Positions 33,600 to 55,572 of a stretch of DNA of 64,000 nucleotides are shown here, piece after piece. A program made the translations under genes and the position numbers. The notes beneath the pieces were generated by a model. It did no database searches, was not told the DNA's origin, and saw only the letters and a list, made by a program, of their open reading frames with translations. Positions within the stretch are counted from its first letter, which is position 1, and every line of letters begins with the position of its first letter. The DNA comes from a phage, in assembly GCA_036253055.1 (NCBI GenBank), contig GCA_036253055.1_4124.1; one strand, written 5' to 3'.

Positions 33600-33770
33600 C
33601 CCTTTATCGAAGTCGCTAAGGTTACCCGCCCTTTAGCCCCCTACGCATTTTGCCATAGTCCAATCCCTTTTATTTTAAAAAAGTCAAGGGATTACCTATG
33701 CATTTTTTTAACGCATTATTTTAAAAACGCCTTGACTTTTTTCTGAATCAGTACTAGATCCCTTTACGCA
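33600..33770. promoter_or_regulatory. Intergenic control region with 13-bp inverted repeat and repeated ACGCATT motifs
   Basis: AAAAAAGTCAAGG ...(~40 nt)... CCTTGACTTTTTT; ACGCATT-like motif four times. Confidence 0.4.
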
Positions 33771-33980
33771 TTAATCCTTCGTTACGCTAACGATTATCTG
33801 TGTATCCCCGTAGTCCTGCCATACTTCCACGCCATCCGTCGCCCTGGTTAGTCGTGCTGTCATCTGCTTAACAGTCTTAGGCTTTAGTGGAACCTGTTGC
33901 AGTACTGTACGCATAGCATCACTGACGTTATCATGTACGCCAGCAATAGTACCTAGAACGCTGTATACTGTATAGAACAT
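33771..33980 (-). CDS. Hypothetical protein (69 aa)
   Basis: SD AGGAGGG before ATG; perfect hairpin AGGCCGCTctctAGCGGCCT upstream. Confidence 0.55.
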   Translation of the reverse strand: MFYTVYSVLGTIAGVHDNVSDAMRTVLQQVPLKPKTVKQMTARLTRATDGVEVWQDYGDTQIIVSVTKD

Positions 33981-34048
33981 ATGTATGCCCTCCTGATATA
34001 GTTAAGGCCGCTAGAGAGCGGCCTATGATGTTTGGTGATGTGTAATGC

Positions 34049-34450
34049 TTACAGCCCTAAGATAGTGCGTGCTTCGTTACGTTCCGTCCATAGCTGCATG
34101 ATGTGAGCAAGTAAGTCCTTACTAATGTATCCGGTGTTCATAGCTTCACGGATAGATACATCATAAGCACCGAACCCCGTGCGAACGATACGCACATCAT
34201 TTAGGTTAGTGTTATAGATACCGCCAAGATCAACGGCTTCGAATACTGCATCAACTGAATACTCATTGTTACCATCGTTGAAGTTTTCTAGTGCAATAGT
34301 ATTGGATACCGCCCAACGTTTGCAGTTTCCAATGATGCGGCATTGTTCCGGTTGGAGAGTGCCATTACTTACAGCGTACTCCAGTGCATCTTTACCAAAA
34401 GTCCGAGCCAGTACTAAAACGTCAGCGAAGGAAGTGATTGAGAAGGTCAT
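34049..34450 (-). CDS. Hypothetical protein (133 aa)
   Basis: Start set at ATG 34450 (SD AAGGAG); track start 34483 lies in the cassette hairpin loop. Confidence 0.6.
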   Translation of the reverse strand: MTFSITSFADVLVLARTFGKDALEYAVSNGTLQPEQCRIIGNCKRWAVSNTIALENFNDGNNEYSVDAVFEAVDLGGIYNTNLNDVRIVRTGFGAYDVSIREAMNTGYISKDLLAHIMQLWTERNEARTILGL

Positions 34451-34468
34451 GATAAAACTCCTTAATTT

Positions 34469-34532
34469 AGGAGGGAGAACCATTTCCCCCTCTCTATGTA
34501 AAACATTATACTTGATTCTAAGTACAATGCAA
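34469..34532 (-). promoter_or_regulatory. Class-1 cassette: TTGCAT-N16-TATAAT + GTTTTACAT + hairpin
   Basis: Read on minus strand; hairpin abuts SD of gene 34049-34450. Confidence 0.6.
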
Positions 34533-34539
34533 GTACTTT

Positions 34540-34866
34540 TTACATTTTAATTCCTGGATTCAGGTAACGATGTGATCCGTATTCTGGATCGGTTTCGGTC
34601 CAGTACTGTAAATCGATAGTACCTTTAGCGTTAATCTTGTCTACCAGCTTATTCATCTTACTGTAGACTACTTCGCTAGGGATGTAGTGTAATCCTTTAT
34701 TATAGAAGTAGTGGTTAGCTTCACTATCGTTTAAGATATAGCGTGCACCGTTTGCGGTTTGTGCAACAATGAAAGAGTATTCTACTTCCCGATCATTACC
34801 ATCAACAGTAATGCGGTCGAAATTGGTACGGATGAAAGCTTTAACGATAGCGATTGAAGTACTCAT
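34540..34866 (-). CDS. Hypothetical protein (108 aa)
   Basis: SD AGGAG; cassette upstream. Confidence 0.6.
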   Translation of the reverse strand: MSTSIAIVKAFIRTNFDRITVDGNDREVEYSFIVAQTANGARYILNDSEANHYFYNKGLHYIPSEVVYSKMNKLVDKINAKGTIDLQYWTETDPEYGSHRYLNPGIKM

Positions 34867-34886
34867 GGTGAATCTCCTAACTTTGT

Positions 34887-34948
34887 GGGCCGTCGCACCA
34901 TTGCCGCCCTACGAGATACATTATTGCAGTACTGATATACTTTGTCAA
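34887..34948 (-). promoter_or_regulatory. Class-1 cassette (TTGACA-N17-ATAATG + GC-rich hairpin)
   Basis: Minus-strand promoter hexamers with AGTACT in spacer. Confidence 0.5.
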
Positions 34949-34966
34949 TACTTTTTCTATTAAAAT

Positions 34967-35182
34967 TTATTTACAGAACTGTAGCCCGACTGTGTTCGGA
35001 TAGTACACACATCTTTCACGCTTACCGCTAAACGCAGATATCCAGGATAATTTGTATGCCACTGGTTCCGGTGCAAGAGGATTATTTGAATAATCGAGAA
35101 CTTTAACAATTAAACGGTCCCCAACATACCAGCCAGTTGACTCTTTGATACGGTCGATAATTTCTTGTTTGGTTAACGCCAT
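34967..35182 (-). CDS. Hypothetical protein (71 aa)
   Basis: Start moved to ATG 35182 (MALTKQEI); track start is a GTG inside the cassette. Confidence 0.55.
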   Translation of the reverse strand: MALTKQEIIDRIKESTGWYVGDRLIVKVLDYSNNPLAPEPVAYKLSWISAFSGKRERCVYYPNTVGLQFCK

Positions 35183-35204
35183 TTTATATCTCGCTCTTTT
35201 GGAG

Positions 35205-35265
35205 GTGGGCTGCACTATTGCCGCCCTACGAGATACATTATCTCAGTACTGATATACTTTGTCAA
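35205..35265 (-). promoter_or_regulatory. Class-1-like cassette (TTGACA, weak -10, GC-rich hairpin)
   Basis: Near-duplicate of cassette at 34887-34948. Confidence 0.45.
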
Positions 35266-35289
35266 TACTTTTTTTGAAATAGTTTTGAG

Positions 35290-35440
35290 TACTGGCATTA
35301 CATCCACCAGCAGATAGTTACTCACCGTTATTAACTATCTTATAGATACTTCTCTGCACCCTGTGGGCTAGTTTTTGTCTATGCGTATATAATAGCAAAG
35401 GGACTGACCGGAGTCAATCCCTTTTTTTTATTCTTTTTTG
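35290..35440 (-). repeat. Intergenic repeat copy A (conserved element + intrinsic terminator)
   Basis: ~150-nt unit shared with copies at 37.2, 40.1 and 44.1 kb; terminator GGGACTGACcggaGTCAATCCC + T-run. Confidence 0.6.
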
Positions 35441-35641
35441 TTAGATGATTCTCCAATCTTCTACCAGGATTTTAATATACCGTACCAGTGATTCGAGTGA
35501 TTCCACTTCCCGATAATCGGTAGCCGTTTGCACTGTACAAGTACAGCCGATCAAGCCATTGCCAAGCTCTTTGATCTGTACATCGATGCAGTTGGCTTTT
35601 GCTTCATTCAGTACTGCAACCAATTCGTTAGCGATTGACAT
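35441..35641 (-). CDS. Hypothetical protein (66 aa)
   Basis: SD AGGAG; cassette upstream. Confidence 0.6.
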   Translation of the reverse strand: MSIANELVAVLNEAKANCIDVQIKELGNGLIGCTCTVQTATDYREVESLESLVRYIKILVEDWRII

Positions 35642-35661
35642 AATGTTTTACTCCTAAAGGT

Positions 35662-35722
35662 GCGGGAGAACTATTCCCCCGCTCTATGTAAAACATTATA
35701 CATTATCTTGTAGTACTGTCAA
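35662..35722 (-). promoter_or_regulatory. Class-1 cassette (TTGACA-N16-TATAAT + GTTTTACAT + hairpin CGGGGGAAtagTTCTCCCG)
   Basis: Read on minus strand. Confidence 0.6.
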
Positions 35723-35729
35723 ATAGTTT

Positions 35730-35987
35730 TTATGAAATATCTTCGATATAGTCGGCCCATGTCATTTGTTCAGTACTATCTAGTGCACCAGGATTATTTG
35801 GATCAAACCATTCGCCATCCCCTAAGTACATTGCAGCCGCTACCGCTTTATAGCCATTATAGGCGTTATTCCACTGCATAGCACGATAGATACGGCCTTT
35901 GATTGGTGTCTGTACTGGTAATGTTTTATGGTCTTCTACGTAGGCCATAGCTTGAGGATTTACCCGATATTGTGTGAACTGTTCCAT
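35730..35987 (-). CDS. Hypothetical protein (85 aa)
   Basis: Start moved to ATG 35987 (MEQFTQ; SD AAGGGGAA); promoter TTGACA-N17-TGTAAT upstream. Confidence 0.5.
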   Translation of the reverse strand: MEQFTQYRVNPQAMAYVEDHKTLPVQTPIKGRIYRAMQWNNAYNGYKAVAAAMYLGDGEWFDPNNPGALDSTEQMTWADYIEDIS

Positions 35988-36062
35988 TATGTTTCCCCTT
36001 GTAGTTAGTAAAGTTATTACATCAGTACTATCACGCATTGTCAATAGTACTGAAATAAAACT

Positions 36063-36287
36063 TTAGATTAGATTATTGATGCCGTTGATGGTAGACTCGC
36101 TTTCTTCTTTCTCCCATTGGCGGTAATACTTCCATGCTTCATGATAGGTGGCGATCAGTTCATCTTTTTGATCCTGAGTACATGCCAGTACTGAATCACT
36201 GTAAGCGGTGTTATAGATAGAATCAAATGATTTCTTCTCTTCTGCCAGGGTAGCTACTTCCCGCATCAGTTCATCAAAGTTAGCCAT
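36063..36287 (-). CDS. Hypothetical protein (74 aa)
   Basis: SD AAGGAG; cassette upstream. Confidence 0.6.
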   Translation of the reverse strand: MANFDELMREVATLAEEKKSFDSIYNTAYSDSVLACTQDQKDELIATYHEAWKYYRQWEKEESESTINGINNLI

Positions 36288-36306
36288 TTTAGTACTCCTT
36301 ATTAGT

Positions 36307-36363
36307 GGGGGAGGATATCTCCCCCTATGTAAAACATTATACTTTGTTTTACTTACAATGCAA
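36307..36363 (-). promoter_or_regulatory. Class-1 cassette (TTGCAT-N16-TATAAT + hairpin GGGGGAGgatatCTCCCCC)
   Basis: Read on minus strand. Confidence 0.6.
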
Positions 36364-36370
36364 GTACTTT

Positions 36371-36562
36371 TTAAATTTTATTTCCGATATAGTCCGGCCT
36401 GTTCTTTTCGGTCATACGCTTAAGCATTTTTTGCATATGGCTTATTGCTTGTAGTGTATCCTCTTCCAGCGATGAATCAAGATAATCAGGATCATTCTTC
36501 ACCTTACAATGATTATGATAGCGTAGTACTGCCAGTACTTTTTTAACTTCTTCTACTGTCAT
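36371..36562 (-). CDS. Hypothetical protein (63 aa)
   Basis: ATGA overlap with upstream gene, co-transcribed. Confidence 0.5.
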   Translation of the reverse strand: MTVEEVKKVLAVLRYHNHCKVKNDPDYLDSSLEEDTLQAISHMQKMLKRMTEKNRPDYIGNKI

Positions 36563-36831
36563 AATAAGTATTCCACTTCGTTTGCTTTCAGGTTAGTATC
36601 AATCATCAGTGGTTTTTTGTAGTCCACAAAACGATTAGTTTTCTCGATAGCGAAGCCCATATAATCCAGTTTGCTTACAGTACATTCATTCTTAAAAACT
36701 TCTTTCGCTGCATTGATGGCTGATTCAATTGATAACCGCCCATCTAAATTAATGTTACCAAATGATCCACCAGCAGAAGTAGGATTACCGTTCATATCTT
36801 TAATAATCATAGTAGCGGAGTAGCTGGACAT
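36559..36831 (-). CDS. Hypothetical protein (90 aa)
   Basis: SD AAAGGAAA; cassette upstream. Confidence 0.6.
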   Translation of the reverse strand: MSSYSATMIIKDMNGNPTSAGGSFGNINLDGRLSIESAINAAKEVFKNECTVSKLDYMGFAIEKTNRFVDYKKPLMIDTNLKANEVEYLL

Positions 36832-36852
36832 AATTTTGTTTCCTTTTATTGG

Positions 36853-36912
36853 TGGGGAGAGCTATTCTCCCCTTGATGTAAACTATTATACAGTACTGAT
36901 ATACTTTGTCAA
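36853..36912 (-). promoter_or_regulatory. Class-1 cassette (TTGACA-N16-TATAAT + AGTTTACAT + hairpin GGGGAGAgctaTTCTCCCC)
   Basis: Read on minus strand. Confidence 0.6.
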
Positions 36913-36915
36913 TAC

Positions 36916-37137
36916 TTAATTACGTTTAAAATGATATGTACCGTTATCATCCTGTACGCCCCATACTGATTTACCATCAACACCAGTGAAGCCGGATTGT
37001 AATTCAATATGGAAACCGTTAGCATCAACGACGAAAACTTTTTTATTTTCATCCCGATAGCATTGATATTCTTCACCTGCTTTAAATGCTGCATCATTCA
37101 GAAGATTTGAAGCGTGAACGCAGGTCATAGTAGTCAT
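36916..37137 (-). CDS. Hypothetical protein (73 aa)
   Basis: Start moved to ATG 37137 (MTTMTC, SD AAAGGAA); track N-terminus MFYIERG... is translated cassette. Confidence 0.6.
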   Translation of the reverse strand: MTTMTCVHASNLLNDAAFKAGEEYQCYRDENKKVFVVDANGFHIELQSGFTGVDGKSVWGVQDDNGTYHFKRN

Positions 37138-37160
37138 CGTCTTGATTCCTTTTAGTACCA

Positions 37161-37220
37161 GGGAGAACCATTTCCCCCTCTCGATATAAAACATTATACG
37201 CTCATTGAGATAGTTTGCAA
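37161..37220 (-). promoter_or_regulatory. Class-1 cassette (TTGCAA-N16-TATAAT + hairpin)
   Basis: Read on minus strand. Confidence 0.6.
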
Positions 37221-37224
37221 GTAC

Positions 37225-37360
37225 TTTTTATAAAATAGTTTTCAGTACTGAATACTTATATAATAGATACACTTCCGCACCCTATGGGTCAGTGAGTTAT
37301 CTCTCAATGAATATATAATAGCAAAGGGACTGACTGGAGTCAATCCCTTTTTTAATCTTT
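37225..37360 (-). repeat. Intergenic repeat copy B (conserved element + intrinsic terminator)
   Basis: Element CCGCACCCTATGGGTCAGTG; terminator GGGACTGACtggaGTCAATCCC + T6. Confidence 0.6.
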
Positions 37361-37361
37361 T

Positions 37362-37946
37362 TTATCGTGTTATAGTTATCGCGTTAACATCACGTTTTTT
37401 ATAGTACTGATTCCAGATATTGCGGGTTAAACCGTAATCAAGTACTTTAATCAAGCCGTTGCGATCCTGGCCGATATTCTGTTTTCTGATATCTCTTATC
37501 GTTAGTGTGGATAATGTATCATCAACGTGATTGAGAGCATCAGCGAAATGGTGATGGCGTTCTACCGTATTACGTTTAATATTGTACTTTAACTCATTGC
37601 ACGCGTTTACATGCTTTACACTGCCTTTGCTTGCAGTACTCAAACGATCCATAACAATAAACAGATTATCAGGATCGCATAAATGCATATGCACTTTAGC
37701 AAAGTACTGTTTAAGGTGCGGACGGTCATAATCTAAAAAATTCCATACCTTACATTCAGTTTCATTTTGTTCTACACCCGCATCACAATTCGCGACCTTA
37801 ATCACTAACCGATCATTTAAAGCGAATACAATACGGGAAGAACCCGCACCGACGATCTCCAGTCCAGCTAACCGACAAGCTGAAAGGATCTCTTTGTTGG
37901 TTTCCATTGCATGAAGTGAACGGATGAATTTAGTATAGTTACGCAT
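37362..37946 (-). CDS. Putative protein-kinase-like protein (194 aa)
   Basis: Gly-rich loop VGAGSSRIVF, beta3 Lys in LVIKVA, catalytic-loop-like DIRKQN, DFG-like DYG; SD AAGGAG; start at ATG 37946. Confidence 0.5.
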   Translation of the reverse strand: MRNYTKFIRSLHAMETNKEILSACRLAGLEIVGAGSSRIVFALNDRLVIKVANCDAGVEQNETECKVWNFLDYDRPHLKQYFAKVHMHLCDPDNLFIVMDRLSTASKGSVKHVNACNELKYNIKRNTVERHHHFADALNHVDDTLSTLTIRDIRKQNIGQDRNGLIKVLDYGLTRNIWNQYYKKRDVNAITITR

Positions 37947-37977
37947 TGTGTTGACTCCTTGAGTTAATGAAACTATA

Positions 37978-45041: not shown

Positions 45042-45188
45042 CTATTTTTTAGATTTACGCAAACTTTCTACCATCTCAGGAGTAAGGCCAGGCGGGTAGG
45101 AAACCACTTCATCAACGAAACGTAAAGGGAATACCCCAGCGAAAGGTGAACGTGCTTTCTTAGTATTACTCTTTTTTGATGCTTTCAT
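45042..45188 (-). CDS. Small basic protein (48 aa); paralog of 39497-39631
   Basis: Not in track; MKASKKSNTKKARSPFAG...DEVV; SD AAGGAA. Confidence 0.45.
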   Translation of the reverse strand: MKASKKSNTKKARSPFAGVFPLRFVDEVVSYPPGLTPEMVESLRKSKK

Positions 45189-45207
45189 TTCATATTCCTT
45201 AATTAGT

Positions 45208-45267
45208 GGGGAGAATCATTTCTCCCCTTCATGTAAAACATTATACGCGTTTAAAAACTAATTGCAA
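45208..45267 (-). promoter_or_regulatory. Class-1 cassette (TTGCAA-N16-TATAAT + hairpin GGGGAGAAatgaTTCTCCCC)
   Basis: Read on minus strand. Confidence 0.6.
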
Positions 45268-45467
45268 GTACTATTTGAAAGTAAATGCTCATACGCTGCA
45301 TTAACTACGTTTTCAATAACCGACTGTACAGAAAGATCCCCCACGTCCTGGCTATAGTAGAAATCGCTTACAGTGGTGTCATCGTATGCAAATACTTTAC
45401 CAGGTACTGCATCAATCACATACATATTAACCTTTAAGATGTCGATCTTATCCTGTACAGTAAGCAT
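45258..45467 (-). CDS. Hypothetical protein (69 aa)
   Basis: SD AAAGGT. Confidence 0.5.
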   Translation of the reverse strand: MLTVQDKIDILKVNMYVIDAVPGKVFAYDDTTVSDFYYSQDVGDLSVQSVIENVVNAAYEHLLSNSTCN

Positions 45468-45472
45468 ATTAA

Positions 45473-45745
45473 TTAACCTTTTAAGTACTGGCTTAAGTAG
45501 TCTTGTTGATCTTCGGTGATTGCAGCCATCTTCCCTAGTACTGGATTGATGATATAATCCCCTGTAACGTCCTGTAACGCATTCTCAGGCGGTTTAACGG
45601 CTGGGGTAGCCATAGCCATTGCCTGGACTTGTTCGACGCTGTAACGCTCATAAAGGCGGCATTCTTCCGGTGTTAACATAGCATCAGTACGCTTCATCGG
45701 TTTAATGATGCTTTCGATCTCATTCAGTACTTGATTAACGTTCAT
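45473..45745 (-). CDS. Hypothetical protein (90 aa)
   Basis: SD GGGGA. Confidence 0.55.
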   Translation of the reverse strand: MNVNQVLNEIESIIKPMKRTDAMLTPEECRLYERYSVEQVQAMAMATPAVKPPENALQDVTGDYIINPVLGKMAAITEDQQDYLSQYLKG

Positions 45746-45796
45746 GGTATAATCCCCAATATAAGCGGCCTAAATCGACCGCTAACGATGTTTTGA

Positions 45797-46066
45797 TTAA
45801 TAGGTGTATGGTTGACGCTCAAACAATGAATAGACGTTATACGCCCCGCTTATGGGCTTCGCTGGTAAATCAATTTTATATTGTTCACGCTTAAAGATAA
45901 TAAAACGGCAATTGTTTTTAACATCAAAATTGATTGAACGTTCCAGGAGTTTACCATCGTGCACAAATACAAGATAACCGCTTGGTACTTGTTTTGTAGA
46001 ACTGGTTGCAACCATAGACCGACGAACATGTGTACCTGCATCGATTAAAGTACTGATATTTTTCAT
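45797..46066 (-). CDS. Hypothetical protein (89 aa)
   Basis: SD AAGAGGAT; 7-bp inverted repeat ATGCAGA-N15-TCTGCAT upstream. Confidence 0.55.
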   Translation of the reverse strand: MKNISTLIDAGTHVRRSMVATSSTKQVPSGYLVFVHDGKLLERSINFDVKNNCRFIIFKREQYKIDLPAKPISGAYNVYSLFERQPYTY

Positions 46067-46146
46067 TTTACTATCCTCTTAAGTTGATTTAATTTCTTTC
46101 TCCTATGCAGACACTATATCAAAGTATCTGCATAAAGTAAAGCTAA

Positions 46147-46470
46147 TTAAAGATCTTTTTTGCGTTTAACATTCTGTACAGTACAATGCAACGGGATATT
46201 AAGATCATTGCACAAACGATAGAGGGAGGTTTCAACAGTATCAAGCCCGTCTACTGATTCCTTTAAGAGTGATACCGCCGTTTGTTGATATGCATCCTCA
46301 TAGCCATAAGTAAATGATTCAACCGCCAGATCATTCAAGCCGTTATCCAGTTCAACGCTTACATGACAAGAATGATAAGTATTGCCATATGAATCAGTCC
46401 AACGTTTACCGTCAACATTGATTGCATGGATTGCAGCCAGGGAAACGGTGTTGATGATAGTTTTAGCCAT
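46147..46470 (-). CDS. Hypothetical protein (107 aa); paralog of 39086-39409
   Basis: SD AAGGAA; class-2 promoter upstream. Confidence 0.6.
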   Translation of the reverse strand: MAKTIINTVSLAAIHAINVDGKRWTDSYGNTYHSCHVSVELDNGLNDLAVESFTYGYEDAYQQTAVSLLKESVDGLDTVETSLYRLCNDLNIPLHCTVQNVKRKKDL

Positions 46471-46561
46471 TTTAGTATTCCTTAAATTAATATGTGTCGT
46501 CTTGATAAAATCTATTATGCCAGTACTATCAAACTATGTCAATAGTACTGTGATAATATTT

Positions 46562-46774
46562 TTACTTACTTTCTTTCGCTGCTTTATATGTTGCCACTGC
46601 CATAACCACATCAGCACGAACAAAGTTTTTAACCGTGTCACTGTAATAATTGATCGCATCATCTATATCTGCGAACGTCCGATACATACCGCACCAAGAT
46701 ACTTTATAACCTTCTTTCACTTCTACCAGTTTAACGATAGTCTTGTTAACTTTGATTTTAGTAATGATAGCCAT
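46562..46774 (-). CDS. MAII-family small protein (70 aa)
   Basis: Start moved to ATG 46774 (MAIITKIK, SD TGAGGAAAC); track start MVLP is the cassette hairpin. Confidence 0.55.
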   Translation of the reverse strand: MAIITKIKVNKTIVKLVEVKEGYKVSWCGMYRTFADIDDAINYYSDTVKNFVRADVVMAVATYKAAKESK

Positions 46775-46794
46775 TTTAGTTTCCTCATTATCAG

Positions 46795-46852
46795 GGAGAA
46801 CCATTTCTCCCCTTGATGTAATGTATTATACTTTATTCGATTTACTTTGCAA
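46795..46852 (-). promoter_or_regulatory. Class-1 cassette (TTGCAA-N16-TATAAT + hairpin)
   Basis: Read on minus strand. Confidence 0.6.
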
Positions 46853-46861
46853 GTACTTTTT

Positions 46862-47089
46862 TTAATTTAATTCATCCAGGCAAAGGATACGCTCAACGCC
46901 CAAATCAGTTAAACTAATCGACGGCACTTGATAGGTTTCAATGTATGCTACACTTGCCCACTGACCGAACTCATTAACGGCCCAGGTATTCATTGCATTT
47001 TGCAATTCCGCACCTGCCTTGTTAGTAATGACTGCAACTACTTGTTCGTTGCCAGTAGTACCAGATACGCGAGTAATGATAATAGCCAT
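46862..47089 (-). CDS. MAII-family small protein (75 aa)
   Basis: Start moved to ATG 47089 (MAIIITRV, SD AAAGGAA). Confidence 0.55.
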   Translation of the reverse strand: MAIIITRVSGTTGNEQVVAVITNKAGAELQNAMNTWAVNEFGQWASVAYIETYQVPSISLTDLGVERILCLDELN

Positions 47090-47112
47090 TGTTTTGATTC
47101 CTTTGATTTGGA

Positions 47113-47172
47113 AGGAGAACCGTTTCCCCCTCTCGATGTAAAACATTATACGCTAATCTCTTAATCGTGCAA
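47113..47172 (-). promoter_or_regulatory. Class-1 cassette (TTGCAC-N16-TATAAT + hairpin)
   Basis: Read on minus strand. Confidence 0.55.
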
Positions 47173-47216
47173 GTACTTTTTATTACTTTTTGCAAAATAC
47201 TTTAAACGCTCTCAAT

Positions 47217-47307
47217 CGCATTCTAACGACCTTAACGCCACCAGCTAGGGCGATGTATCAGATAATCAGTTTAATGCGTTAGAATCGATTCTAGGCGGTG
47301 CTGGTGG
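47217..47307. repeat. Interleaved inverted repeats (CGCATTCTAACG / CGTTAGAATCG and CCACCAGC / GCTGGTGG)
   Basis: Two inverted-repeat pairs arranged A-B...A'-B' between a terminator and the next promoter. Confidence 0.5.
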
Positions 47308-47324
47308 ACTGGAATACTACAGAC

Positions 47325-47352
47325 ACAAAAAAGCCCACTGTTTAAGGTGGGC
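47325..47352 (-). terminator. Intrinsic terminator (GCCCACcttaaacaGTGGGC + T6)
   Basis: Hairpin then TTTTTT on minus strand, 20 nt after stop at 47375. Confidence 0.7.
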
Positions 47353-47374
47353 TAGTGATTCAGTACTTTAATTG

Positions 47375-47857
47375 TTATGCTTCAACTTTGCGATGAGCTT
47401 CGATCCATTCCTCGCGAGTCATACCGCTTTCTTTGATAGCGTCCAGTACTACCGCAATGCAGTTACCGCGTACAGGAATCAAATGTTCTTCCCCGTTATC
47501 AAGGACAACAGTAACACGTTCTTGAATCCATTTTTTAGGCTTAGATTCCGGCTTATCTTCACCGTACTTAACCGCCAGGGCTTTATGTGCCATTTCAATA
47601 ACCACTTCCAGATCTAAACCAGACACCGCCGCCTGAATACTTTCTATTGTTGCTTGCAGTTCTGCTTCACGGGCTTTTTTCTGTTCTTCCAGTTCTGCTA
47701 CCTTTTTGGCTTGTAGTTCTTTCGCTTCACTGTAAGCAATGTTAAAATTGTTGCGTACTGCTTTCATGGTATCATTATCCAGGTCAGCCAGCAATTCAGC
47801 AGCAATCACAGTATCGTTAGAAATCAGTGCTTTCAGAAATGATTTTACATTAGCCAT
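47375..47857 (-). CDS. Hypothetical coiled-coil protein (160 aa)
   Basis: Start moved to ATG 47857 (MANVKSF, SD GAGGAT); Lys/Glu-rich heptad-like segment; strong terminator downstream. Confidence 0.6.
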   Translation of the reverse strand: MANVKSFLKALISNDTVIAAELLADLDNDTMKAVRNNFNIAYSEAKELQAKKVAELEEQKKAREAELQATIESIQAAVSGLDLEVVIEMAHKALAVKYGEDKPESKPKKWIQERVTVVLDNGEEHLIPVRGNCIAVVLDAIKESGMTREEWIEAHRKVEA

Positions 47858-48049
47858 TTTATAAATCCTCAATTAAAGTTTAAGTTAGTTTATCAAAGTT
47901 TGTTTGACGTGTCCAGTTTTTCATTCGACTTACTGGCGGTCTACTTAATGTTCCCCGTCTTGATGTAATACATTCTACGCTTTTCCCTGGTAATGTCAAC
48001 TACTTTTTTAAAACTATTTTCAAAGTATACCAGTACTACGATACTACAA

Positions 48050-48078
48050 AAACAAAAAAGCCCACTGTATAAGTGGGC
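48050..48078 (-). terminator. Intrinsic terminator (GCCCACttatacaGTGGGC + T6)
   Basis: Near-duplicate of terminator at 47325; follows stop at 48097. Confidence 0.7.
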
Positions 48079-48096
48079 TAGTGATTCAGTACTATA

Positions 48097-48396
48097 TTAT
48101 AAACAATTAATTACGCCAGTGAATGTAACTTTCTCTGTATCCATTACAGTAACCGAACCGCGTTTACTTTTTGCATCGTAATAGATGGTCGTGCTACCCT
48201 GATCATCTTCTTCATGGTACGGGCCATTAGCAAACATTGCAGGGGCCAGTTCCAGGGATTTGGTAACGATCTCAGCCGTTTCCTCGTTAGTCATTGCAAC
48301 AGTGCACTGAATGAATTTTTCTTTCTGTACATCAACGGAAGCGTTAACAGCGAAAGAGGAAACAGATAAAGCCAGGGCGATGATTGCAGTTTTCAT
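48097..48396 (-). CDS. Putative secreted/periplasmic small protein (99 aa)
   Basis: N-terminal signal-peptide-like MKTAIIALALSVSSFAVNA; SD AAAGGAT; own promoter and terminator. Confidence 0.6.
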   Translation of the reverse strand: MKTAIIALALSVSSFAVNASVDVQKEKFIQCTVAMTNEETAEIVTKSLELAPAMFANGPYHEEDDQGSTTIYYDAKSKRGSVTVMDTEKVTFTGVINCL

Positions 48397-48418
48397 TTGT
48401 ATATCCTTTGTTAGTACT

Positions 48419-48474
48419 AGGGAGTATTCCCGATTAGATGTAAAACATTATACGCGTTTAAAAACTATTATCAA
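48419..48474 (-). promoter_or_regulatory. Class-1 cassette (TTGATA-N16-TATAAT + GTTTTACAT)
   Basis: Read on minus strand; weak hairpin. Confidence 0.5.
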
Positions 48475-48507
48475 GTACTTTAATATAAAAGTATTTGAAA
48501 AAAAGTC

Positions 48508-48640
48508 TTGACAACTGCATCCAGTACTGGCATAATATCTACATAAAGACGAGATAGTCACTAACCCACAGGGTGCATAGATCCGTCTATTAAATGATTC
48601 AGTACTGCAAAATAAAGGGGATCGTTTGATCCCCCTGATT
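48508..48640 (+). ncRNA. Candidate plus-strand small RNA (class-2 promoter + CACTAACCCACAGGGTGCA element + terminator hairpin)
   Basis: TTGACA 48508-13, CATAAT 48531-36, element 48559-77, hairpin GGGGATCgtttGATCCCC 48617-34; no ORF; opposite to all local genes. Confidence 0.35.
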
Positions 48641-48641
48641 A

Positions 48642-48863
48642 TTACTTAGTAAGATATAAACAAAAATCACCTTTCTTTGATACTCCGCAAGTGTAACGCG
48701 ATGAATAGTTAGAAACGTCTTGTACTTCTGCAATGACGAGCGTATCATCATTTAACTCATCGCAAAAACATACTGCGGGATCTTCTACGCCGATATTGTC
48801 GGCATGTTCCCGCATAGATTTAACCAGTGCTTCAAGCTGGGAAAGAGTAGTGATATTAGCCAT
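48642..48863 (-). CDS. Hypothetical protein (73 aa)
   Basis: SD AAGGAG; cassette upstream. Confidence 0.6.
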   Translation of the reverse strand: MANITTLSQLEALVKSMREHADNIGVEDPAVCFCDELNDDTLVIAEVQDVSNYSSRYTCGVSKKGDFCLYLTK

Positions 48864-48882
48864 TGTAAAACTCCTTATTAGT

Positions 48883-48941
48883 GGGGAGAACCATTTCCCC
48901 CTTGATGTAAACTATTATATAGTACTGGAAACTATTTGCAA
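48883..48941 (-). promoter_or_regulatory. Class-1 cassette (TTGCAA-N16-TATAAT + hairpin)
   Basis: Read on minus strand. Confidence 0.6.
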
Positions 48942-48947
48942 GTACTT

Positions 48948-49136
48948 TTAATTAAATTCCATAAAATCATTTTCAACGTGCACAACAATCTGATTATTTT
49001 TAAAGGACGCAGAAAACTCTATACAATCATAAACCGCTTTTTCTGTTACCAGACTATGAGCACCAATCGGATTAATTGGGGATTGAATTGTTTCAATCTC
49101 GTTACCCTGCTCATTTACAATTAAAATATTAAACAT
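48948..49136 (-). CDS. Hypothetical protein (62 aa)
   Basis: SD AGGAG; promoter TTGCAA-N16-TATAAT. Confidence 0.55.
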   Translation of the reverse strand: MFNILIVNEQGNEIETIQSPINPIGAHSLVTEKAVYDCIEFSASFKNNQIVVHVENDFMEFN

Positions 49137-49210
49137 TGTCGTTACTCCTGGATAGTGTTAACTCGATGTAAACAATTATACAGTACTGGAAACTAATTGC
49201 AAGTACTTTT

Positions 49211-49414
49211 TTAATTTAATTGCTTTAAAACAAAATCAAAGACACCACGCACATCATTGATCATCGCCTGGCGGTTAGCAGGTAACGCATCAGGATCGCC
49301 ACTATCCCAGGCATTAATGAAGCCACTTAAATCATGGAATACTTTATTCCGTAACCCGATCAACTGCAATTCTTTTTCTTCAAGCTCTTTGATACGTTCA
49401 ATTAAATCACTCAT
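49211..49414 (-). CDS. Hypothetical protein (67 aa)
   Basis: Start moved to ATG 49414 (MSDLIERIK, SD GAGGAT). Confidence 0.5.
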   Translation of the reverse strand: MSDLIERIKELEEKELQLIGLRNKVFHDLSGFINAWDSGDPDALPANRQAMINDVRGVFDFVLKQLN

Positions 49415-49431
49415 TAGATAATCCTCAGTAC

Positions 49432-49716
49432 TCAATTGTAAGATCCACATCGTTCGCAGTAGTGTTCATCTTCCTCATCTTCTACCACTTGCCCGATGAA
49501 ATGATCTACTTTCGCTTTCAGGTTATTATAATCGTTTTCTACTTCCTGTAAACGTTCCTGGTAGTATTCCAGGGCTTCAACAAATGCAGCTTCCTCTGAT
49601 TTTGCTTGCATCGATAAATTCATCCCGCGTGTTTCATCATATAGCCAAAAACCATCGGTGCATTCAGTTATAGATAACGTGTTAGTCAGTACTTTACTAT
49701 TAATTACTTTGCTCAT
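49432..49716 (-). CDS. Hypothetical protein (94 aa), Cys-containing C-terminus
   Basis: SD GAGGAT; C-terminal HYCERCGSYN. Confidence 0.55.
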   Translation of the reverse strand: MSKVINSKVLTNTLSITECTDGFWLYDETRGMNLSMQAKSEEAAFVEALEYYQERLQEVENDYNNLKAKVDHFIGQVVEDEEDEHYCERCGSYN

Positions 49717-49735
49717 TAGATAATCCTCATTAAAG

Positions 49736-49794
49736 GCGGGAACTATTCCCGCTCTCGATATAAAGTATTATACGTTAATCTAATTACTTTGCAA
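49736..49794 (-). promoter_or_regulatory. Class-1 cassette (TTGCAA-N16-TATAAT + hairpin GCGGGAAtagTTCCCGC)
   Basis: Read on minus strand. Confidence 0.6.
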
Positions 49795-49801
49795 GTACTT
49801 T

Positions 49802-50039
49802 TTAGTGCTTTTTATAAAACATCTCAGCGGTGATATTTTTACCCGTTGGTTGTACTTTATCCAGGATCTTTTGGTGTGCACTACGCCCGAAAGAATAAGA
49901 ACCGTAAACCGTTAGCCAGTAGTCGCCATTTTGGTTTACATGTACCGCACAATAAGGAACGCCCCGCGAATCGTCACCAATGAAGTGTGATACTGTACCC
50001 GTTACGTTTGGCGTTGTAGTTTTGATTTGTTCGATCATT
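49802..50039 (-). CDS. Hypothetical protein (78 aa)
   Basis: Start moved to ATG 50039 (MIEQIK, SD AGGAG) downstream of hairpin GGCGGGGAAtggTTCCCGCC. Confidence 0.5.
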
Positions 50040-50096
50040 TCTCTTACTCCTGGGATATAGGCGGGAACCATTCCCCGCCATTGATTCAGTACTGAA

Positions 50097-50708
50097 TTAA
50101 TATTCGATAGATTCTACTACATCGTCGATAACGTTAAATTGATATTCGTTACCCTCAATCAGTCCTACAATGTTTTCAGTAGTAAACTGGTCTTCATAAG
50201 CATTTTCTAAATCACGGTACAGCTTACAAGATAATTCTCGGATAGTATCAGTCAGTAAGTTTTCCAGATCCTCAGCCAATGCAGCCTGTTTTACAGTTAA
50301 ATCAGTGTAGCGAGTATCAACGCAACCGCCTACCGTGTTTTCGTGAGCGTAGCGTGATTGGGAACGTTCTACACTCATTTCCAAATCATCTTCGTTCAAC
50401 AGGTGACGGATGGAACGATATTTCGTTAACGCCTTAACCTTGCGTAAAAACTTCTCAGCGTCAACGTGGTCAGTACTGATTGATGCACCGTCACCTTGCG
50501 ACCAAAAACCACTGTATTGCAATTCAGCTTCATCTATGCCGTATTCTGGCAGTACTGTTTCTTTATAGTATTCCAGTACTGATTCAGCAAAGAAATTATC
50601 CTCACTTGCACGTTCCCGATCCCGAACCAGTTCGATAGCCGCCGCTTGTTGTTCTGCGTTCAGTTCAGAAAAATCCATAACGAAAGTAGTAGTAGTGATA
50701 GTTTTCAT
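50097..50708 (-). CDS. Hypothetical acidic protein (203 aa)
   Basis: SD TGAGGGT; tandem promoters with structured element X copy 2 between them. Confidence 0.65.
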   Translation of the reverse strand: MKTITTTTFVMDFSELNAEQQAAAIELVRDRERASEDNFFAESVLEYYKETVLPEYGIDEAELQYSGFWSQGDGASISTDHVDAEKFLRKVKALTKYRSIRHLLNEDDLEMSVERSQSRYAHENTVGGCVDTRYTDLTVKQAALAEDLENLLTDTIRELSCKLYRDLENAYEDQFTTENIVGLIEGNEYQFNVIDDVVESIEY

Positions 50709-50778
50709 TTTGTAACCCTCATTCAGTAGTTGATGTAAGTATTATACGCTTTTAAAAACAATTGTCAAACTATTTTAT

Positions 50779-50886
50779 CAGGGGAGTTTTTCGTGTGCCT
50801 TACTCCTGGGCTACTTAACGGGAAGTTACTTATTTCGTTCCCCGTCCTGATGTAAAACATTATACGCCTTTAAACATAGTTTGCAA
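50779..50886 (-). ncRNA. Candidate structured leader/sRNA element X (copy 2)
   Basis: About 90% identical to 39968-40074; frame-disrupting differences argue against a peptide. Confidence 0.35.
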
Positions 50887-50931
50887 GTACTTTTTGAAAA
50901 TAGTTTTTATCTCTTTCATATAGATACATTC

Positions 50932-51001
50932 CCGCACCCTATGGGCTATCGCCTTGTGTCCGGCTTGTAAGTATTATCTCACTAAGCCGGATAACGGTCA
51001 A
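50932..51001 (-). promoter_or_regulatory. Class-2-like promoter (TTGACC..TAATAC) + conserved CCCATAGGGTGCGGG element + hairpin CCGGCTT-N17-AAGCCGG
   Basis: Same promoter-to-element arrangement as 42498-42567. Confidence 0.4.
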
Positions 51002-51007
51002 GTACTT

Positions 51008-51274
51008 TTATTCAAGTACTGCAATCTTTTTAGTACTGTACACAGTAACGCGGTTGCCCTTGCGGTCGTGCTTTATTTCTACCACGCGACGCGATACACT
51101 ATCAGGACGCTTTAAAGCAGATAGCCAGTACTGAATTGATCGGGCTGTACTTTGCTTTACTACGGCCCAACGTTTACCACGTTCAGATTGTACGCCCATA
51201 TCTTTAAACGTTGCCCCGTCCTGGCGTGCTGCAATCCGAGCTAGTTCACGCGTCGCAAAATATGTAATAGTCAT
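51008..51274 (-). CDS. Hypothetical protein (88 aa); paralog of 38591-38986
   Basis: Start moved to ATG 51274 (MTITYFATREL, SD AGGGGT). Confidence 0.55.
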   Translation of the reverse strand: MTITYFATRELARIAARQDGATFKDMGVQSERGKRWAVVKQSTARSIQYWLSALKRPDSVSRRVVEIKHDRKGNRVTVYSTKKIAVLE

Positions 51275-51357
51275 GCTGTTACCCCTATCGTTGATGTACA
51301 AAAAGAACTTTATTATAAAGTACTATCACCGTGCAATAGTACTTTTAATCTATTCTC

Positions 51358-51597
51358 TTACATTCCAACCATCGCCGCACGGATCGCAGTAGTACTATAC
51401 TTAAAGCCGTCCGGTGTTTTATCTTGTCCAGTCTGTTCTAAAAATAGCATCATATGACGGGCCGCATCATTACGATTAGTGTTAGCGGCAATAAAGTCCT
51501 GGGCCAACCGGTATAATGATTCGTCGTTATTAATCCAAAGGCTTACATTCCATTGAGTTTTGTTTTTGTGTCCTAAGAACATTTTTGATTTAGCCAT
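51358..51597 (-). CDS. Hypothetical protein (79 aa)
   Basis: Start moved to ATG 51597 (MAKSKMF, SD AAGAGGAT). Confidence 0.55.
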   Translation of the reverse strand: MAKSKMFLGHKNKTQWNVSLWINNDESLYRLAQDFIAANTNRNDAARHMMLFLEQTGQDKTPDGFKYSTTAIRAAMVGM

Positions 51598-51618
51598 TTT
51601 TAAATCCTCTTTATTATA

Positions 51619-51677
51619 GTGGGGAACTATTCCCCACCTGATGTAAAACATTATACGCTTTTAAACTTAGTTTGCAA
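51619..51677 (-). promoter_or_regulatory. Class-1 cassette (TTGCAA-N16-TATAAT + hairpin GTGGGGAAtagTTCCCCAC)
   Basis: Read on minus strand. Confidence 0.65.
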
Positions 51678-51691
51678 GTACTTTATTAAAC

Positions 51692-52054
51692 TTATTCGTA
51701 AATCTTGCCACTGTCAGCCCATACCAGGAAACGAGGCATATTATCCCATGCATCTTGTTTTAAGTTTAAGCCGTGTAATACTTCTGTACTTTCCATTCCT
51801 GGTACTGGCTTGCTATACACTGCAAACATTTCGCCCATGTACTGATAAGCCATCGTTAAATCAGTCTGGATCATCTTATGGATCATTGCATCCAGCATTG
51901 CAGTAGCGGCATACTGTTCACGCTTAAGCGGCAGCATTGCAATCAATTCCCGATAAGCTGCAATGTGAATCCGTACAGTCTCAGCGGGAAGATCTTTCAT
52001 CTCTTCACGGAAAGAAACCAGGTTAAGCATGATAGTATTGATTTGAGTCGCCAT
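51692..52054 (-). CDS. Hypothetical protein (120 aa)
   Basis: Start moved to ATG 52054 (MATQINT); first gene of the middle module. Confidence 0.55.
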   Translation of the reverse strand: MATQINTIMLNLVSFREEMKDLPAETVRIHIAAYRELIAMLPLKREQYAATAMLDAMIHKMIQTDLTMAYQYMGEMFAVYSKPVPGMESTEVLHGLNLKQDAWDNMPRFLVWADSGKIYE

Positions 52055-52077
52055 CGTTTTAATCTCTTTTAAAGTGT

Positions 52078-52137
52078 AGCGGGAAGTGTTCCCGCTCTCG
52101 ATGTAAAACATTCTACACCTTTCCCAATACTTTGCAA
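52078..52137 (-). promoter_or_regulatory. Class-1 cassette (TTGCAA-N16-TAGAAT + hairpin AGCGGGAAcacTTCCCGCT)
   Basis: Read on minus strand; most upstream cassette of the module. Confidence 0.6.
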
Positions 52138-52879
52138 GTACTTTCTACAAATACTTTTAAAATAGTTTTCTTTCTATATAGGGGAACTATCTTTCAGTAC
52201 TGCAACCATCCAGGGGAACTATCTTTCTATATAGTAGTACTATGATTCAGTACTGAATCAATCCACCAAATCATCCCGATACCCCGTAAAACGGCCTCAG
52301 ACGCATTCTAACGCATTAATACACCTAAGCTATACATTTGCACCATTCCAATCATTCCAGGGCTTTACAGGCCGTTTAAACGCGTTAAATTATTTTCAAT
52401 TATTTTGTTTTTAGCTATTGACTCAGTACTAAAAAAGCGTATAATTACTACATAGACGCGAGAAAGCGGATACCCCAGGGGGTGGGAAGATCCGTCCAAA
52501 ATTCAAGATATAAAAAAAGGATACACTCCCGCACCCTAGCAGGTTAACGCACTTTCTCAGTACTGAATTATAGTACCATAGTCCGGCCCAGGATGGCAAG
52601 CAAATTAATTAAAACTTTTTTCATCCAGGGTATTGCTTTATTTTTCCAGTACTGTATAATAGTTCCATCAAGTCGAGAAAGACTCAAGCCCACCGGGTGC
52701 ATAGTTACGCCCAAAATTCAGTACTGAAAAAATTTTTAAAAATATCCGTCCAGGCCGTTGACATTGCCCCCAGTTTATAAGATAATGATTCCAGATTCAG
52801 AAAAATCTAACTCCAGATACTGCGGGGAAACTATCCCCACGCGGTAGGGGAACTATTGGAAAAAACAAAATAAAATTTT

Positions 52880-53040
52880 GATTTAGCCGTCTATACTTCC
52901 AGACGTGTAACCATCTAGCCGTTTAGCCGTCCAAACGTCTAGCAATCCAGCCATCCAGAAATCTAGCCGTTTAGCCGTCTAGATGGATAGCCATCTTTAC
53001 TTCCAGACTTCTGGAGGGCTAGACATATCTACGTCCAAAA
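52880..53040. repeat. GC-richer block of short direct repeats (TAGCCGTTTAGCCGTC x2, CCATCCAG, TCCAGAC) with small hairpins
   Basis: Visible direct repeats; AGATGGatagCCATCT and CCAGActTCTGG palindromes. Confidence 0.5.
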
Positions 53041-53193
53041 TCCACCCAGGGTAACTACGCCCAAAATCCGTCAGTACTATACCATAGATCTATCTTTTGA
53101 AAGGGAGTATTCAGTACTGTCATCATAGCCCTCACTATGTTACCCTAGGAGGATGAAGACTATCATGTAGTACTGAATACTGTTAGAGGGAAT

Positions 53194-53213
53194 CCACCAG
53201 CACAAGCTGGTGG
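53194..53213. repeat. Perfect palindrome CCACCAGCacaaGCTGGTGG
   Basis: 8-bp arms; same CCACCAGC motif recurs at 47.24 kb, 35.30 kb and 40.12 kb. Confidence 0.6.
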
Positions 53214-53700
53214 CATAATGCTTTAGATTAAAATCAGTACTGACACCATTCTGTTAATATCAGTACTGTTATTACGATTTTCATATGAGGTTCAAAAAGA
53301 TGTACCACCACAGGAGGAACTATCTTTTCTGTACTGTCTCACGACAGGAGGTAGAGTAAATGAATTGTTCGCAGCAACTCATCACCCTATGTAGAACATT
53401 ATACAGTACTGAATCATAATGTCAATAGCTTTCTTTCATTATTCAGTACTGAAATCGTATAATCTGTATCGCTACAAAACTCATTATATCCCACAAATCC
53501 TATATGTCCCAACGTAAATTTCAACTTTCGAAGATCCAACTTTTATTTCATAGGTACTCCAAAATTTTTAGGATCGAGATTTAGGATGGAGTACTAACCA
53601 ACTTTTTGCTGGAGCCTCAAGGGGTAATTGAATTTTACCCCGAAGGGTAAAAGGGTAATTGAAATTAAGGTGAAAGTAATAATTCAGTACTAATCATTGC

Positions 53701-53729
53701 GTGATTACTTTTGATTACATTTGATGTAA
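53701..53729. repeat. Iteron cluster 1: TGATTAC-like repeats at exact 10-bp spacing (x3)
   Basis: TGATTACTTT TGATTACATT TGATGTAATT. Confidence 0.55.
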
Positions 53730-53867
53730 TTTGCAAAATGGAAAAGGAGCTTGGAAACTACAAAGTACGGCAGACTTCCTCTGCCTACTTAGTGGCATAT
53801 CAGTACTGCTACGTTCTTGATTAAACGTGAACATTCCTGTACTCTAGTACTCACTACTGATCACTAC

Positions 53868-53929
53868 AGTGATTATAAATGATTACTTAAATGTTTATAT
53901 ATGATTACTTATGACTACCTATGATTACG
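53868..53929. repeat. Iteron cluster 2: ATGATTAC(TT) repeats (x5, 10/22-bp spacing)
   Basis: gtgATTATaaATGATTACTT...ATGATTACTTATGACTACCTATGATTACgg. Confidence 0.55.
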
Positions 53930-54625: not shown

Positions 54626-54626
54626 A

Positions 54627-54812: not shown

Positions 54813-54821
54813 ATTGTTCTC

Positions 54822-55010: not shown

Positions 55011-55011
55011 G

Positions 55012-55194: not shown

Positions 55195-55195
55195 A

Positions 55196-55381: not shown

Positions 55382-55382
55382 G

Positions 55383-55571: not shown

Positions 55572-55572
55572 A

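Follow-up and report, generated by a model that had tools for sequence, protein, structure and literature searches.

Chi sites clustered at the ends of packaged DNA have been described in phages. In phage P1, they are terminally clustered, and terminal recombination by RecBCD and RecA has been proposed (Subramaniam & Smith, bioRxiv 10.1101/2021.07.08.451572); the lambdoid phage LLS also carries a terminal Chi cluster, and represents a class with 'no Rec module, high Chi' (Genome Res 2025, PMC12315714). The Chi of enteric bacteria is given as GCTGGTGG (PMC12315714; PMC13181404), and the rule for its reading is that RecBCD entering an end recognizes Chi on the strand ending 3' there, from the 3' side of Chi (PMC12315714). 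Here, we report that a stretch of phage DNA of 64,000 nucleotides (GenBank assembly GCA_036253055.1, contig GCA_036253055.1_4124.1; hereafter the window) contains an island of Chi sites in the long direct terminal repeat (DTR) of a jumbo phage. Two of these sites, in opposite orientation, are found in the segment 47217-47307, together with an apparent degenerate copy of an approximately 23-nt element that recurs in the terminal repeat of phage T5. A preliminary description, made from the sequence alone, had taken this segment for a set of binding sites or an alternative-structure switch upstream of a promoter.

The window is DNA of a PBECO4-like jumbo coliphage of the genus Asteriusvirus. The window matches 46 jumbo-phage records, the majority of which are classified in this genus, and around 47217-47307 its identity to Escherichia phage PBECO4 is 97.6%. 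As a reference for the genome ends, we used vB_Ec-M-J, a complete and end-resolved genome of 378,573 bp with direct terminal repeats annotated at 1-21,525. BLAST comparison placed record position 1 at window position 53789, and the record end (378573) at window position 33619; therefore, the window crosses a concatemer junction and holds one collapsed DTR copy of about 20.2 kb (33619..53789), with the right end of the virion genome at 33619 and the left end at 53789. Because this single copy has unique DNA on both sides, either the source assembly is circularly permuted or the repeat was collapsed. The record of phage G17 begins at the equivalent of window position 33619, in agreement with the mapped end. 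Repeats of this size have been reported for related phages: a terminal redundancy of about 20 kb is visible in the sequence coverage of G17 (PMC6563267), and the DTR of fEgEco12 (20,993 bp) was confirmed using PhageTerm and restriction digests (PMC13070987).

The segment 47217-47307 contains two pairs of inverted arms in the order A-B-A'-B'. Arms B (47238..47245, minus or gene strand, i.e. CCACCAGC on the plus strand) and B' (47300..47307, plus strand) are exact Chi octamers, one per orientation; both this identity and the location of the segment in a terminal repeat had escaped the preliminary description. Counting both strands, GCTGGTGG occurs 10 times in the window against an expectation of 0.50 +/- 0.67, a number reached by none of 100 shuffles, and all 10 copies lie inside 33619-53789 (P ~1e-5). 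Chi is the sole GC-rich octamer present at its count in the DTR, and its 24 one-mismatch variants have three occurrences there in total. According to the records of related phages, the hosts are E. coli, Salmonella and Klebsiella, enteric bacteria whose RecBCD reads this octamer; the Chi of Pseudomonas, GCTGGCGC, is unlike GCTGGTGG.

Seven of the 10 sites are intergenic, namely those at 35304..35311, 40117..40124 and 42846..42853 (all minus strand, the last overlapping a terminator-like stem), arms B and B', and two sites that form a bidirectional pair near the left end. The remaining three (36767..36774, 38175..38182 and 41385..41392, all minus strand) are in the coding sequences of different genes, the one at 38175 in a different reading frame. 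A possible origin of the octamers as by-products of one repeat family or protein motif was discarded, since their contexts are unrelated and the coding copies differ in gene and frame. The terminal pair (53194..53213) has the form CCACCAGC-N4-GCTGGTGG with spacer acaa, and lies 0.58 kb from the left end. The preliminary description had noticed this recurrence at 53194, which it called a perfect palindrome; it is an inverted repeat with a 4-nt spacer. The same 20-bp arrangement is present at 588/600 in vB_Ec-M-J and at 20064/20076 in G17, and again at 484/496 in the distant phage fENko-Kae01, with spacer ttaa and other flanks. Of four Asteriusvirus genomes compared, three possess this pair, at about 0.5 kb from their left end; the fourth, SP27, has one octamer mutated to CCACCAAC. 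A search of IMG/VR for the pattern CCACCAGC-N(0-30)-GCTGGTGG gave unrelated contigs among the matches listed.

The island is not peculiar to the window. In vB_Ec-M-J, 11 of 34 Chi fall in the 21.5-kb DTR, which makes up 6% of the unique sequence (P = 3e-6); the other 335 kb contain 23 Chi against a mean of 11 per neighbour octamer, i.e. Chi is about twice as frequent there. In the Klebsiella phage fENko-Kae01, 14 Chi were counted in the 19.7-kb DTR and 2 in the 30 kb that follow; the corresponding numbers for the Klebsiella phage Muenster (Alcyoneusvirus, 31% G+C) are 8 in the 20-kb DTR and none in the following 25 kb. These are independent lineages, with an average nucleotide identity of about 29% or with DNA similarity lacking altogether. 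Muenster's sole left-facing Chi is in the spacer just 3' of its homologue of the gene at 47375-47857, i.e. in the spacer syntenic with 47217-47307. Across four Asteriusvirus genomes, the octamer itself is retained at orthologous Chi sites, while the 60-nt flanks on each side diverge. Being both over-represented relative to neighbour octamers and conserved, the Chi octamers of the DTR appear to be kept by selection. With many Chi at packaged ends or terminal repeats in the window, in vB_Ec-M-J, in Kae01 (14/16) and in Muenster (8/8), the DTR island belongs to the known class of phage terminal Chi islands. A search of the literature found no description of Chi in jumbo-phage repeats, nor any results on a dependence of phage growth on RecBCD and RecA.

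With respect to the mapped ends, eight of the window Chi face the right end, 33619, from which the first is met at 1.7 kb, and two face the left end, 53789, at 0.58 kb and 6.5 kb (the latter being B'; B is among those read from 33619). The ratio is 9:2 in vB_Ec-M-J, 12:2 in Kae01 and 7:1 in Muenster, or 28:5 for the three lineages pooled. Since a site in either orientation will always face one end or the other, orientation is informative only through its bias and through the proximity to the ends; judged by these, the sites seem to be oriented for RecBCD entering at 33619 and 53789.

The identification of the octamers as Chi is well supported statistically and comparatively, and we infer that they act through RecBCD and RecA. 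According to this mechanism, B and B' would not pair with each other, and each would be read separately by host RecBCD travelling in from one genome end. Once the linear DNA has been injected, RecBCD would load at its ends and degrade it until a correctly oriented Chi is met from its 3' side, whereupon degradation would stop and RecA would be loaded on the 3' tail. The island could in this way limit the destruction of the entering genome and/or drive RecA recombination between the two terminal repeats, and strand invasion of the other repeat copy would produce circles or concatemers, as has been proposed for P1. The recognition of Chi by RecBCD is assumed to be about 30-40% per site. At this efficiency, 8-12 sites would convert more than 94% of the enzymes within the repeat, and two sites about 50-64%.

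The resemblance to P1 and LLS concerns the many exact GCTGGTGG concentrated at the packaged DNA ends, the strong bias towards the orientation read by RecBCD from an end, and a Chi density far over both the expectation and the E. coli average. It may extend to the proposed role, RecBCD/RecA recombination of terminal repeats or end protection. In contrast to those systems, the phage studied here is a virulent jumbo myovirus of about 350 kb with fixed DTRs of about 20 kb, neither headful (pac) nor cos; its island coincides exactly with the repeat; and both Chi orientations are present as close pairs at two places. Unlike LLS, moreover, vB_Ec-M-J has an annotated UvsX-like recombinase, UvsY, SbcCD-like proteins and exonucleases, and therefore falls outside the 'no Rec module' class, although it might work in a similar way. 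With the E. coli chromosome, the DTR has in common the octamer itself, its strand-specific logic and an orientation that follows the main direction of transcription or replication. However, the DTR has one Chi per 2 kb against one per about 4.6 kb in the chromosome, despite a G+C content of 38%, and the phage genome outside the DTR has far fewer.

The segment 47217-47307 is non-coding spacer DNA between two transcription units of the minus strand. The upstream gene (47375..47857, stop codon at 47375-47377) encodes a 160-aa protein of phrog_27871 (PHROG 5.6e-92). The C-terminus of this protein aligns with residues 74-134 of E. coli H-NS, the DNA-binding domain (27% identity over 66 aa, BLASTP E = 0.001), its N-terminal part is coiled-coil-like, and its Muenster homologue is annotated as a 'putative DNA-binding protein'; Pfam and PDB sequence searches of the genes flanking the spacer gave no significant match. 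Between this gene and the segment there is an intrinsic terminator on the minus strand (47326..47353), AGCCCAC-loop-GTGGGCT followed by T6, with the stem at 47353-47332 and the T-run extending to 47326. It was detected by a terminator scan, is also annotated in G17, and its stem is kept in all of the 10 Asteriusvirus genomes that were aligned for the analysis of the arms (the relatives referred to below). On the other side of the segment, an A/T-rich stretch lies 5' of the -35 box of the next early promoter, a sigma-70-type promoter of the minus strand (47145..47172; TTGCAC-16 nt-TATAAT, -35 at 47172-47167, -10 at 47150-47145) that forms an invariant block of the alignment. The downstream gene is a small early gene (46862..47089, minus strand) for a 75-aa protein of phrog_13850, with annotated equivalents in relatives. 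Within 1.1 kb around the segment, JP4, slurp01, 121Q and G17 have about 200 bp of extra DNA, which in 121Q and G17 apparently amounts to an additional gene of 153 nt that separates the spacer from the downstream gene.

The other pair of arms, A and A', leads to a different kind of signal. The core of arm A, CGCATTCTAACG (47217-47228), occurs exactly three times in the window against about 0 expected, and all three 12-mers form the 3' half of an element of about 23 nt, AAACGYCCT-N4-CGCATTCTAA. The best copy, AAACGTCCTGTAACGCATTCTAA, is at 42774..42796, in overlap with the ribosome-binding site of gene 42572-42769 (minus strand); a second, with 2 mismatches, is at 45565..45587, inside the coding sequence 45473-45745; a third, with 4 mismatches, is at 52289..52311, 1.5 kb from the left end. 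These copies are on the plus strand, as is arm A (47204..47237), apparently a degenerate copy, whose 23-mer (47204-47226) has 5 mismatches and retains an exact CGCATTCTAA half. Arm A' (47273..47285, minus strand) is an inverted partial copy of the 3' half of the element (ATTCTAACGCATT on the minus strand), and has 15 nt, ATTCTAACGCATTAA, in common with 52305-52319, the 3' part of the copy at 52289. Among relatives, the arm A copy is weakly constrained. As a side observation, a perfect extended -10 (TGaTATAAT) is present on the plus strand 6 nt 5' of the copy at 45565, inside the minus-strand coding sequence (45540-45600), and could be an antisense promoter.

All four copies are in the DTR, and none that is convincing was found in the other 335 kb of vB_Ec-M-J. 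Related copies are present in the repeats of Muenster, RaK2 and Kae01; one of the Muenster copies is in the syntenic spacer already mentioned, 5' of the next promoter, and reads on the non-gene strand. A profile was built from nine jumbo-phage copies, including arm A, whose own score is therefore not independent, and was used to search 465 kb of held-out DNA. The top match was in T5, at 9345-9376 (E = 2.2e-6), with T5 6265-6291 in second place; the 435 kb of jumbo-phage DNA from outside the repeats gave no significant match. The exact pattern retrieved 31 stretches from IMG/VR, mostly in contigs of T5-like size (~104-122 kb) and with T5 itself represented twice; two of the stretches were in phage 121Q and a few in other contigs. 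In the T5 record AY587007, the copy at 9273-9295 is inside Repeat Region 3, a candidate injection-stop region, and is identical to the best window copy in 20 of 23 positions, while the copy at 6189-6211 is the annotated 'inverted repeat B''. The extreme conservation of the T5 repeat regions has been stressed by Davison (bioRxiv 10.1101/866236).

RNAalifold found no consensus structure in 18 copies of the element. Stems of the type AAACG...CGTTT are present in some copies only, and some copies begin at promoter-like -10 elements. A conserved hairpin or 5'-leader RNA was rejected as an explanation of the element for the missing consensus structure and for its orientation to genes, which differs between genera. 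Also rejected was an array of CGTT[AT] phased at 10 bp, of which there is one strict cluster only (42778-42807). Given the lack of a consensus structure and the variable orientation to genes, the element is most likely a sequence-specific protein site. Arms A and A' are most likely a degenerate copy and an inverted half-copy of this independent, putatively protein-binding element. The family is a genuine one, validated by the matches in held-out T5 DNA, and in the DNA examined it is confined to the long terminal repeats of these jumbo phages and of T5-like phages.

The link between the element of the jumbo phages and the repeat regions of T5 was an unexpected addition to the Chi island. The A motif and the copies in T5 inverted repeat B' and Repeat Region 3 form one ~23-nt family, and in both phage groups the element occurs only in a long terminal repeat rich in small early genes. 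On the other hand, no significant hit was obtained when the T5 terminal repeat and those of the jumbo phages were searched for shared proteins, and neither the DnaA-box pairs nor the large IRC/IRD repeats of T5 were found in the window phage. Two-step injection is a trait of T5, and the arm A copy is degenerate. It may be added that the 10.2-kb terminal repeat of T5 (NC_005859) contains Chi at 8127 and 8689, both on the plus strand, with none in the next 20 kb, and that their orientation is that of the majority class in the jumbo-phage repeats.

Alternative explanations of the segment must be weighed against this evidence. If the segment were the alternative-structure switch of the preliminary description, pairing of A with A' or of B with B', in RNA or in single-stranded DNA, would toggle how the downstream gene is expressed. 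The inverted repeats do exist and are interleaved, apart from coordinates a few bases off (the inverted partner of A is at 47277-47287, not at 47275). A and A' are perfectly complementary over 9 bases (ATTCTAACG at 47220-47228 with CGTTAGAAT at 47277-47285), or over 11 with a one-base bulge, and form a helix in minimum-free-energy folds; B and B' are perfectly complementary over 8 bp. The plus-strand DNA fold is the only one better than shuffled sequences (z = -2.06). The claimed extension of the B pairing by CTAG is not collinear, since CTAG abuts B and precedes B' by 5 nt, and the two pairings need not be mutually exclusive, as the order A-B-A'-B' is also compatible with a pseudoknot. Further evidence makes such a switch hardly credible. 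Being 3' of the terminator and 5' of the next promoter, the segment is not a leader, i.e. not a transcribed region between a promoter and its open reading frame. The folds of the gene-strand and plus-strand RNAs (z = -0.74 and -0.59) are close to those of shuffled sequences, and B/B' never forms in the predicted folds. Compensatory changes were sought in the proposed helices, and none of the 19 pairs has changed on both sides, while eight vary solely by breaking the pair. The arms also mutate independently of their partners: B is invariant in all 10 relatives, while B' is intact in six and reads GCTAGTGG in three and GCTGACGG in one; the core of A is intact in six and has 1-5 substitutions in four, where A' is unchanged; A' has been removed in G17 by a 12-nt deletion, and CGTTAGAAT is kept in the other nine. 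The block 47277-47259 is also invariant in the alignment. There is no Rfam match at the segment, where gathering and permissive thresholds gave only partial terminator-like hits, and a tRNA/tmRNA scan found nothing. Finally, interleaved 8-bp inverted repeats are frequent by chance: perfect ones of at least 8 bp within 100 bp were found at 19 window loci and at 3-10 in 20 first-order Markov simulations. The A-B-A'-B' geometry is not unusual and is incidental.

The suggestion of binding sites upstream of a promoter came nearer to the truth, as the segment is directly 5' of a sigma-70-type promoter and contains motifs that recur non-randomly and are conserved in relatives. In its strict form, in which a perfect 14-bp palindrome, TAGAATCGATTCTA (47280..47293, overlapping A'), and the A/A' half-sites would bind a dimeric phage or host regulator of the adjacent early promoter, with Chi incidental here, this idea is nevertheless decidedly unlikely. 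The position about 60-150 bp upstream of the transcription start would be suitable, the H-NS-like product of the neighbour gene is an example of a candidate regulator, and in Muenster an A-family element is at the same position 5' of the orthologous promoter. However, no dyad site is conserved among the 10 relatives: the palindrome is perfect in five, has a point mutation in four and is deleted in G17, and arm A is degenerate in four. Other A-family copies occupy places as varied as a ribosome-binding site, coding sequence, a 5' untranslated region and the untranslated repeat regions of T5, and an operator would leave unexplained the invariant Chi at 47238 and the Chi enrichment throughout the DTR. 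In another reading, the GCTGGTGG octamers would be recognized by proteins of the phage itself that act on the terminal repeat (terminase, replication or recombination proteins), and their identity to Chi would be a coincidence. Their confinement to the terminal repeat, the palindromic 20-bp pair conserved at about 0.5 kb from the left end, which suggests a dimer site, and the clustering of other short repeat arrays near the termini point in this direction. It is still an improbable explanation, considering that the exact enteric Chi is found in three lineages infecting E. coli, Salmonella and Klebsiella, that most octamers stand alone, scattered and in a common orientation, as they do in the P1 and LLS islands, and that one-mismatch variants are absent, as expected from strict recognition by RecC. 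A chance juxtaposition of repeats left over from duplicated intergenic cassettes, with no function at this locus, is very improbable. The interleaved geometry is common, the DTR consists of cassettes of promoter and gene in repeated copies, some relatives have lost B' and A, and the Chi at 35304 and 40117 adjoin copies of one repeat family; but the Chi contexts are otherwise unrelated, B never varies, the enrichment statistics are contrary to chance, and both Chi and the A element recur in the syntenic spacer of the genus of Muenster, whose DNA cannot be aligned with the window.

The explanation that we prefer, and consider probable, is RecBCD-directed end protection or terminal-repeat recombination at the Chi sites, accompanied by a putative protein-binding site in the A element. 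Several points weigh against it. The relatives encode their own UvsX/UvsY-like recombinase and SbcCD-like nuclease, so that a dependence on host recombination is not obvious. With B' lost in four and A degenerate in four of the 10 relatives, this particular pair must be dispensable. The 8:2 bias coincides with the direction of transcription and with a G-rich coding strand, and orientation alone is therefore no proof of an end-directed function. Were the left end to enter first, as it does in T5, the fewest active Chi would be at the end exposed longest. Lastly, it could instead be a dimeric phage protein that recognizes the near-terminal 20-bp Chi palindrome.

As regards the motifs on which the preliminary description was based, their enumeration bore it out for GCTGGTGG and CGCATTCTAACG, which are far above chance and kept in relatives, and not for ACGCATT alone, whose enrichment is marginal (13 in the window against 6.97 +/- 2.38 expected, a number reached by 1 of 100 shuffles), and which was dropped as an independent motif. 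It does recur, at 42786, 52301, 52311, 33643, 33711 and 33766; the positions 42795 and 52293 given before were about 9 nt off. Three of these copies are within 150 bp at the right genome end (33643, 33711 and 33766; region 33619-33790). Two of the three are kept in G17, SP27 and vB_Ec-M-J, and the middle one is bracketed by an 11-bp inverted repeat, AAAAGTCAAGG / CCTTGACTTTT.

The genes of the DTR are all small and all on the window minus strand. About 19 copies of an early-gene cassette (34468-53444), each 5' of a small minus-strand gene, combine a sigma-70-type promoter with a hairpin in the 5' untranslated region; the promoter at 47145..47172 belongs to one of them. The order in the cassette is TTGCAA or TTGACA, 16-17 nt, TATAAT, GTTTTACATC, a GGGGAGAA...TTCTCCCC hairpin and the ribosome-binding site, and its copies were found as repeat families D1-D6. 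The hexamer AGTACT occurs 256 times in the whole window against 21.5 expected (e.g. 47174-47179 and 47361-47366), and CAGTACTG 52 times against 0.6. AGTACT often abuts the -10 as AGTACTG-TATAAT (extended -10 TGnTATAAT) or sits just 5' of the -35, and the repeats of Muenster and Kae01 are likewise rich in it. Another motif, GCACCCTGTGGG(C/T)TAG, is present on both strands of the DTR (e.g. 35337-35372, 37257-37284, 40124-40159, 44143-44181 and 48558-48598), and in the Kae01 and Muenster repeats as ACCCTGTGGG, with 4-6 copies each. Near the left genome end, a tandem array with an 8-bp period (unit TAGCCGTC, ~12 copies) is situated 0.8-0.9 kb inside the repeat (52884-52983), and 10-bp GATTAC-type repeats flank the terminus 53789 on both sides (53702-53725 and 53870-53928). 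These short arrays may be packaging or terminase signals. Just outside the DTR, at 54607-55752, a sequence with a period of about 190 bp is repeated in tandem (2.3-5 copies, 63-86% identity); in relatives, small paralogous genes of about 60 aa follow one another at the corresponding place.

For annotation, the lesson of this locus is that repeats resembling a structure are two sets of linear DNA signals, unrelated to each other, that occur in both orientations in one spacer. For the biology of these phages, what is at stake is how giant linear genomes survive RecBCD on entry, and what use the ~20-kb repeats are to Rak2/PBECO4-like phages, which are under development for therapy. The repeat-coincident Chi island in three lineages offers a testable answer, i.e. 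that host RecBCD is exploited and not merely evaded. It predicts that rec alleles would affect the host range, and the island could also restrict the acquisition of CRISPR spacers from phage ends. The A element, in turn, ties the jumbo phages to the conserved repeat regions of T5, and provides a short probe for the factor acting there. It is conceivable, if doubtful, that Rak2-like jumbo phages and the otherwise unrelated T5-like phages have a common terminal-repeat architecture, in which Chi islands, including conserved bidirectional pairs, would pass the entering ends to host RecBCD and RecA, and the ~23-nt element, which in T5 is within repeat regions thought to hold the injection stop signal, would be the other component. 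Should the element have the same function in both groups, Rak2-like phages would use a staged entry similar to that of T5, or the two groups would share a host factor recognizing terminal repeats. If so, the element would be a defined sequence with which to probe the mechanism of the T5 injection stop.

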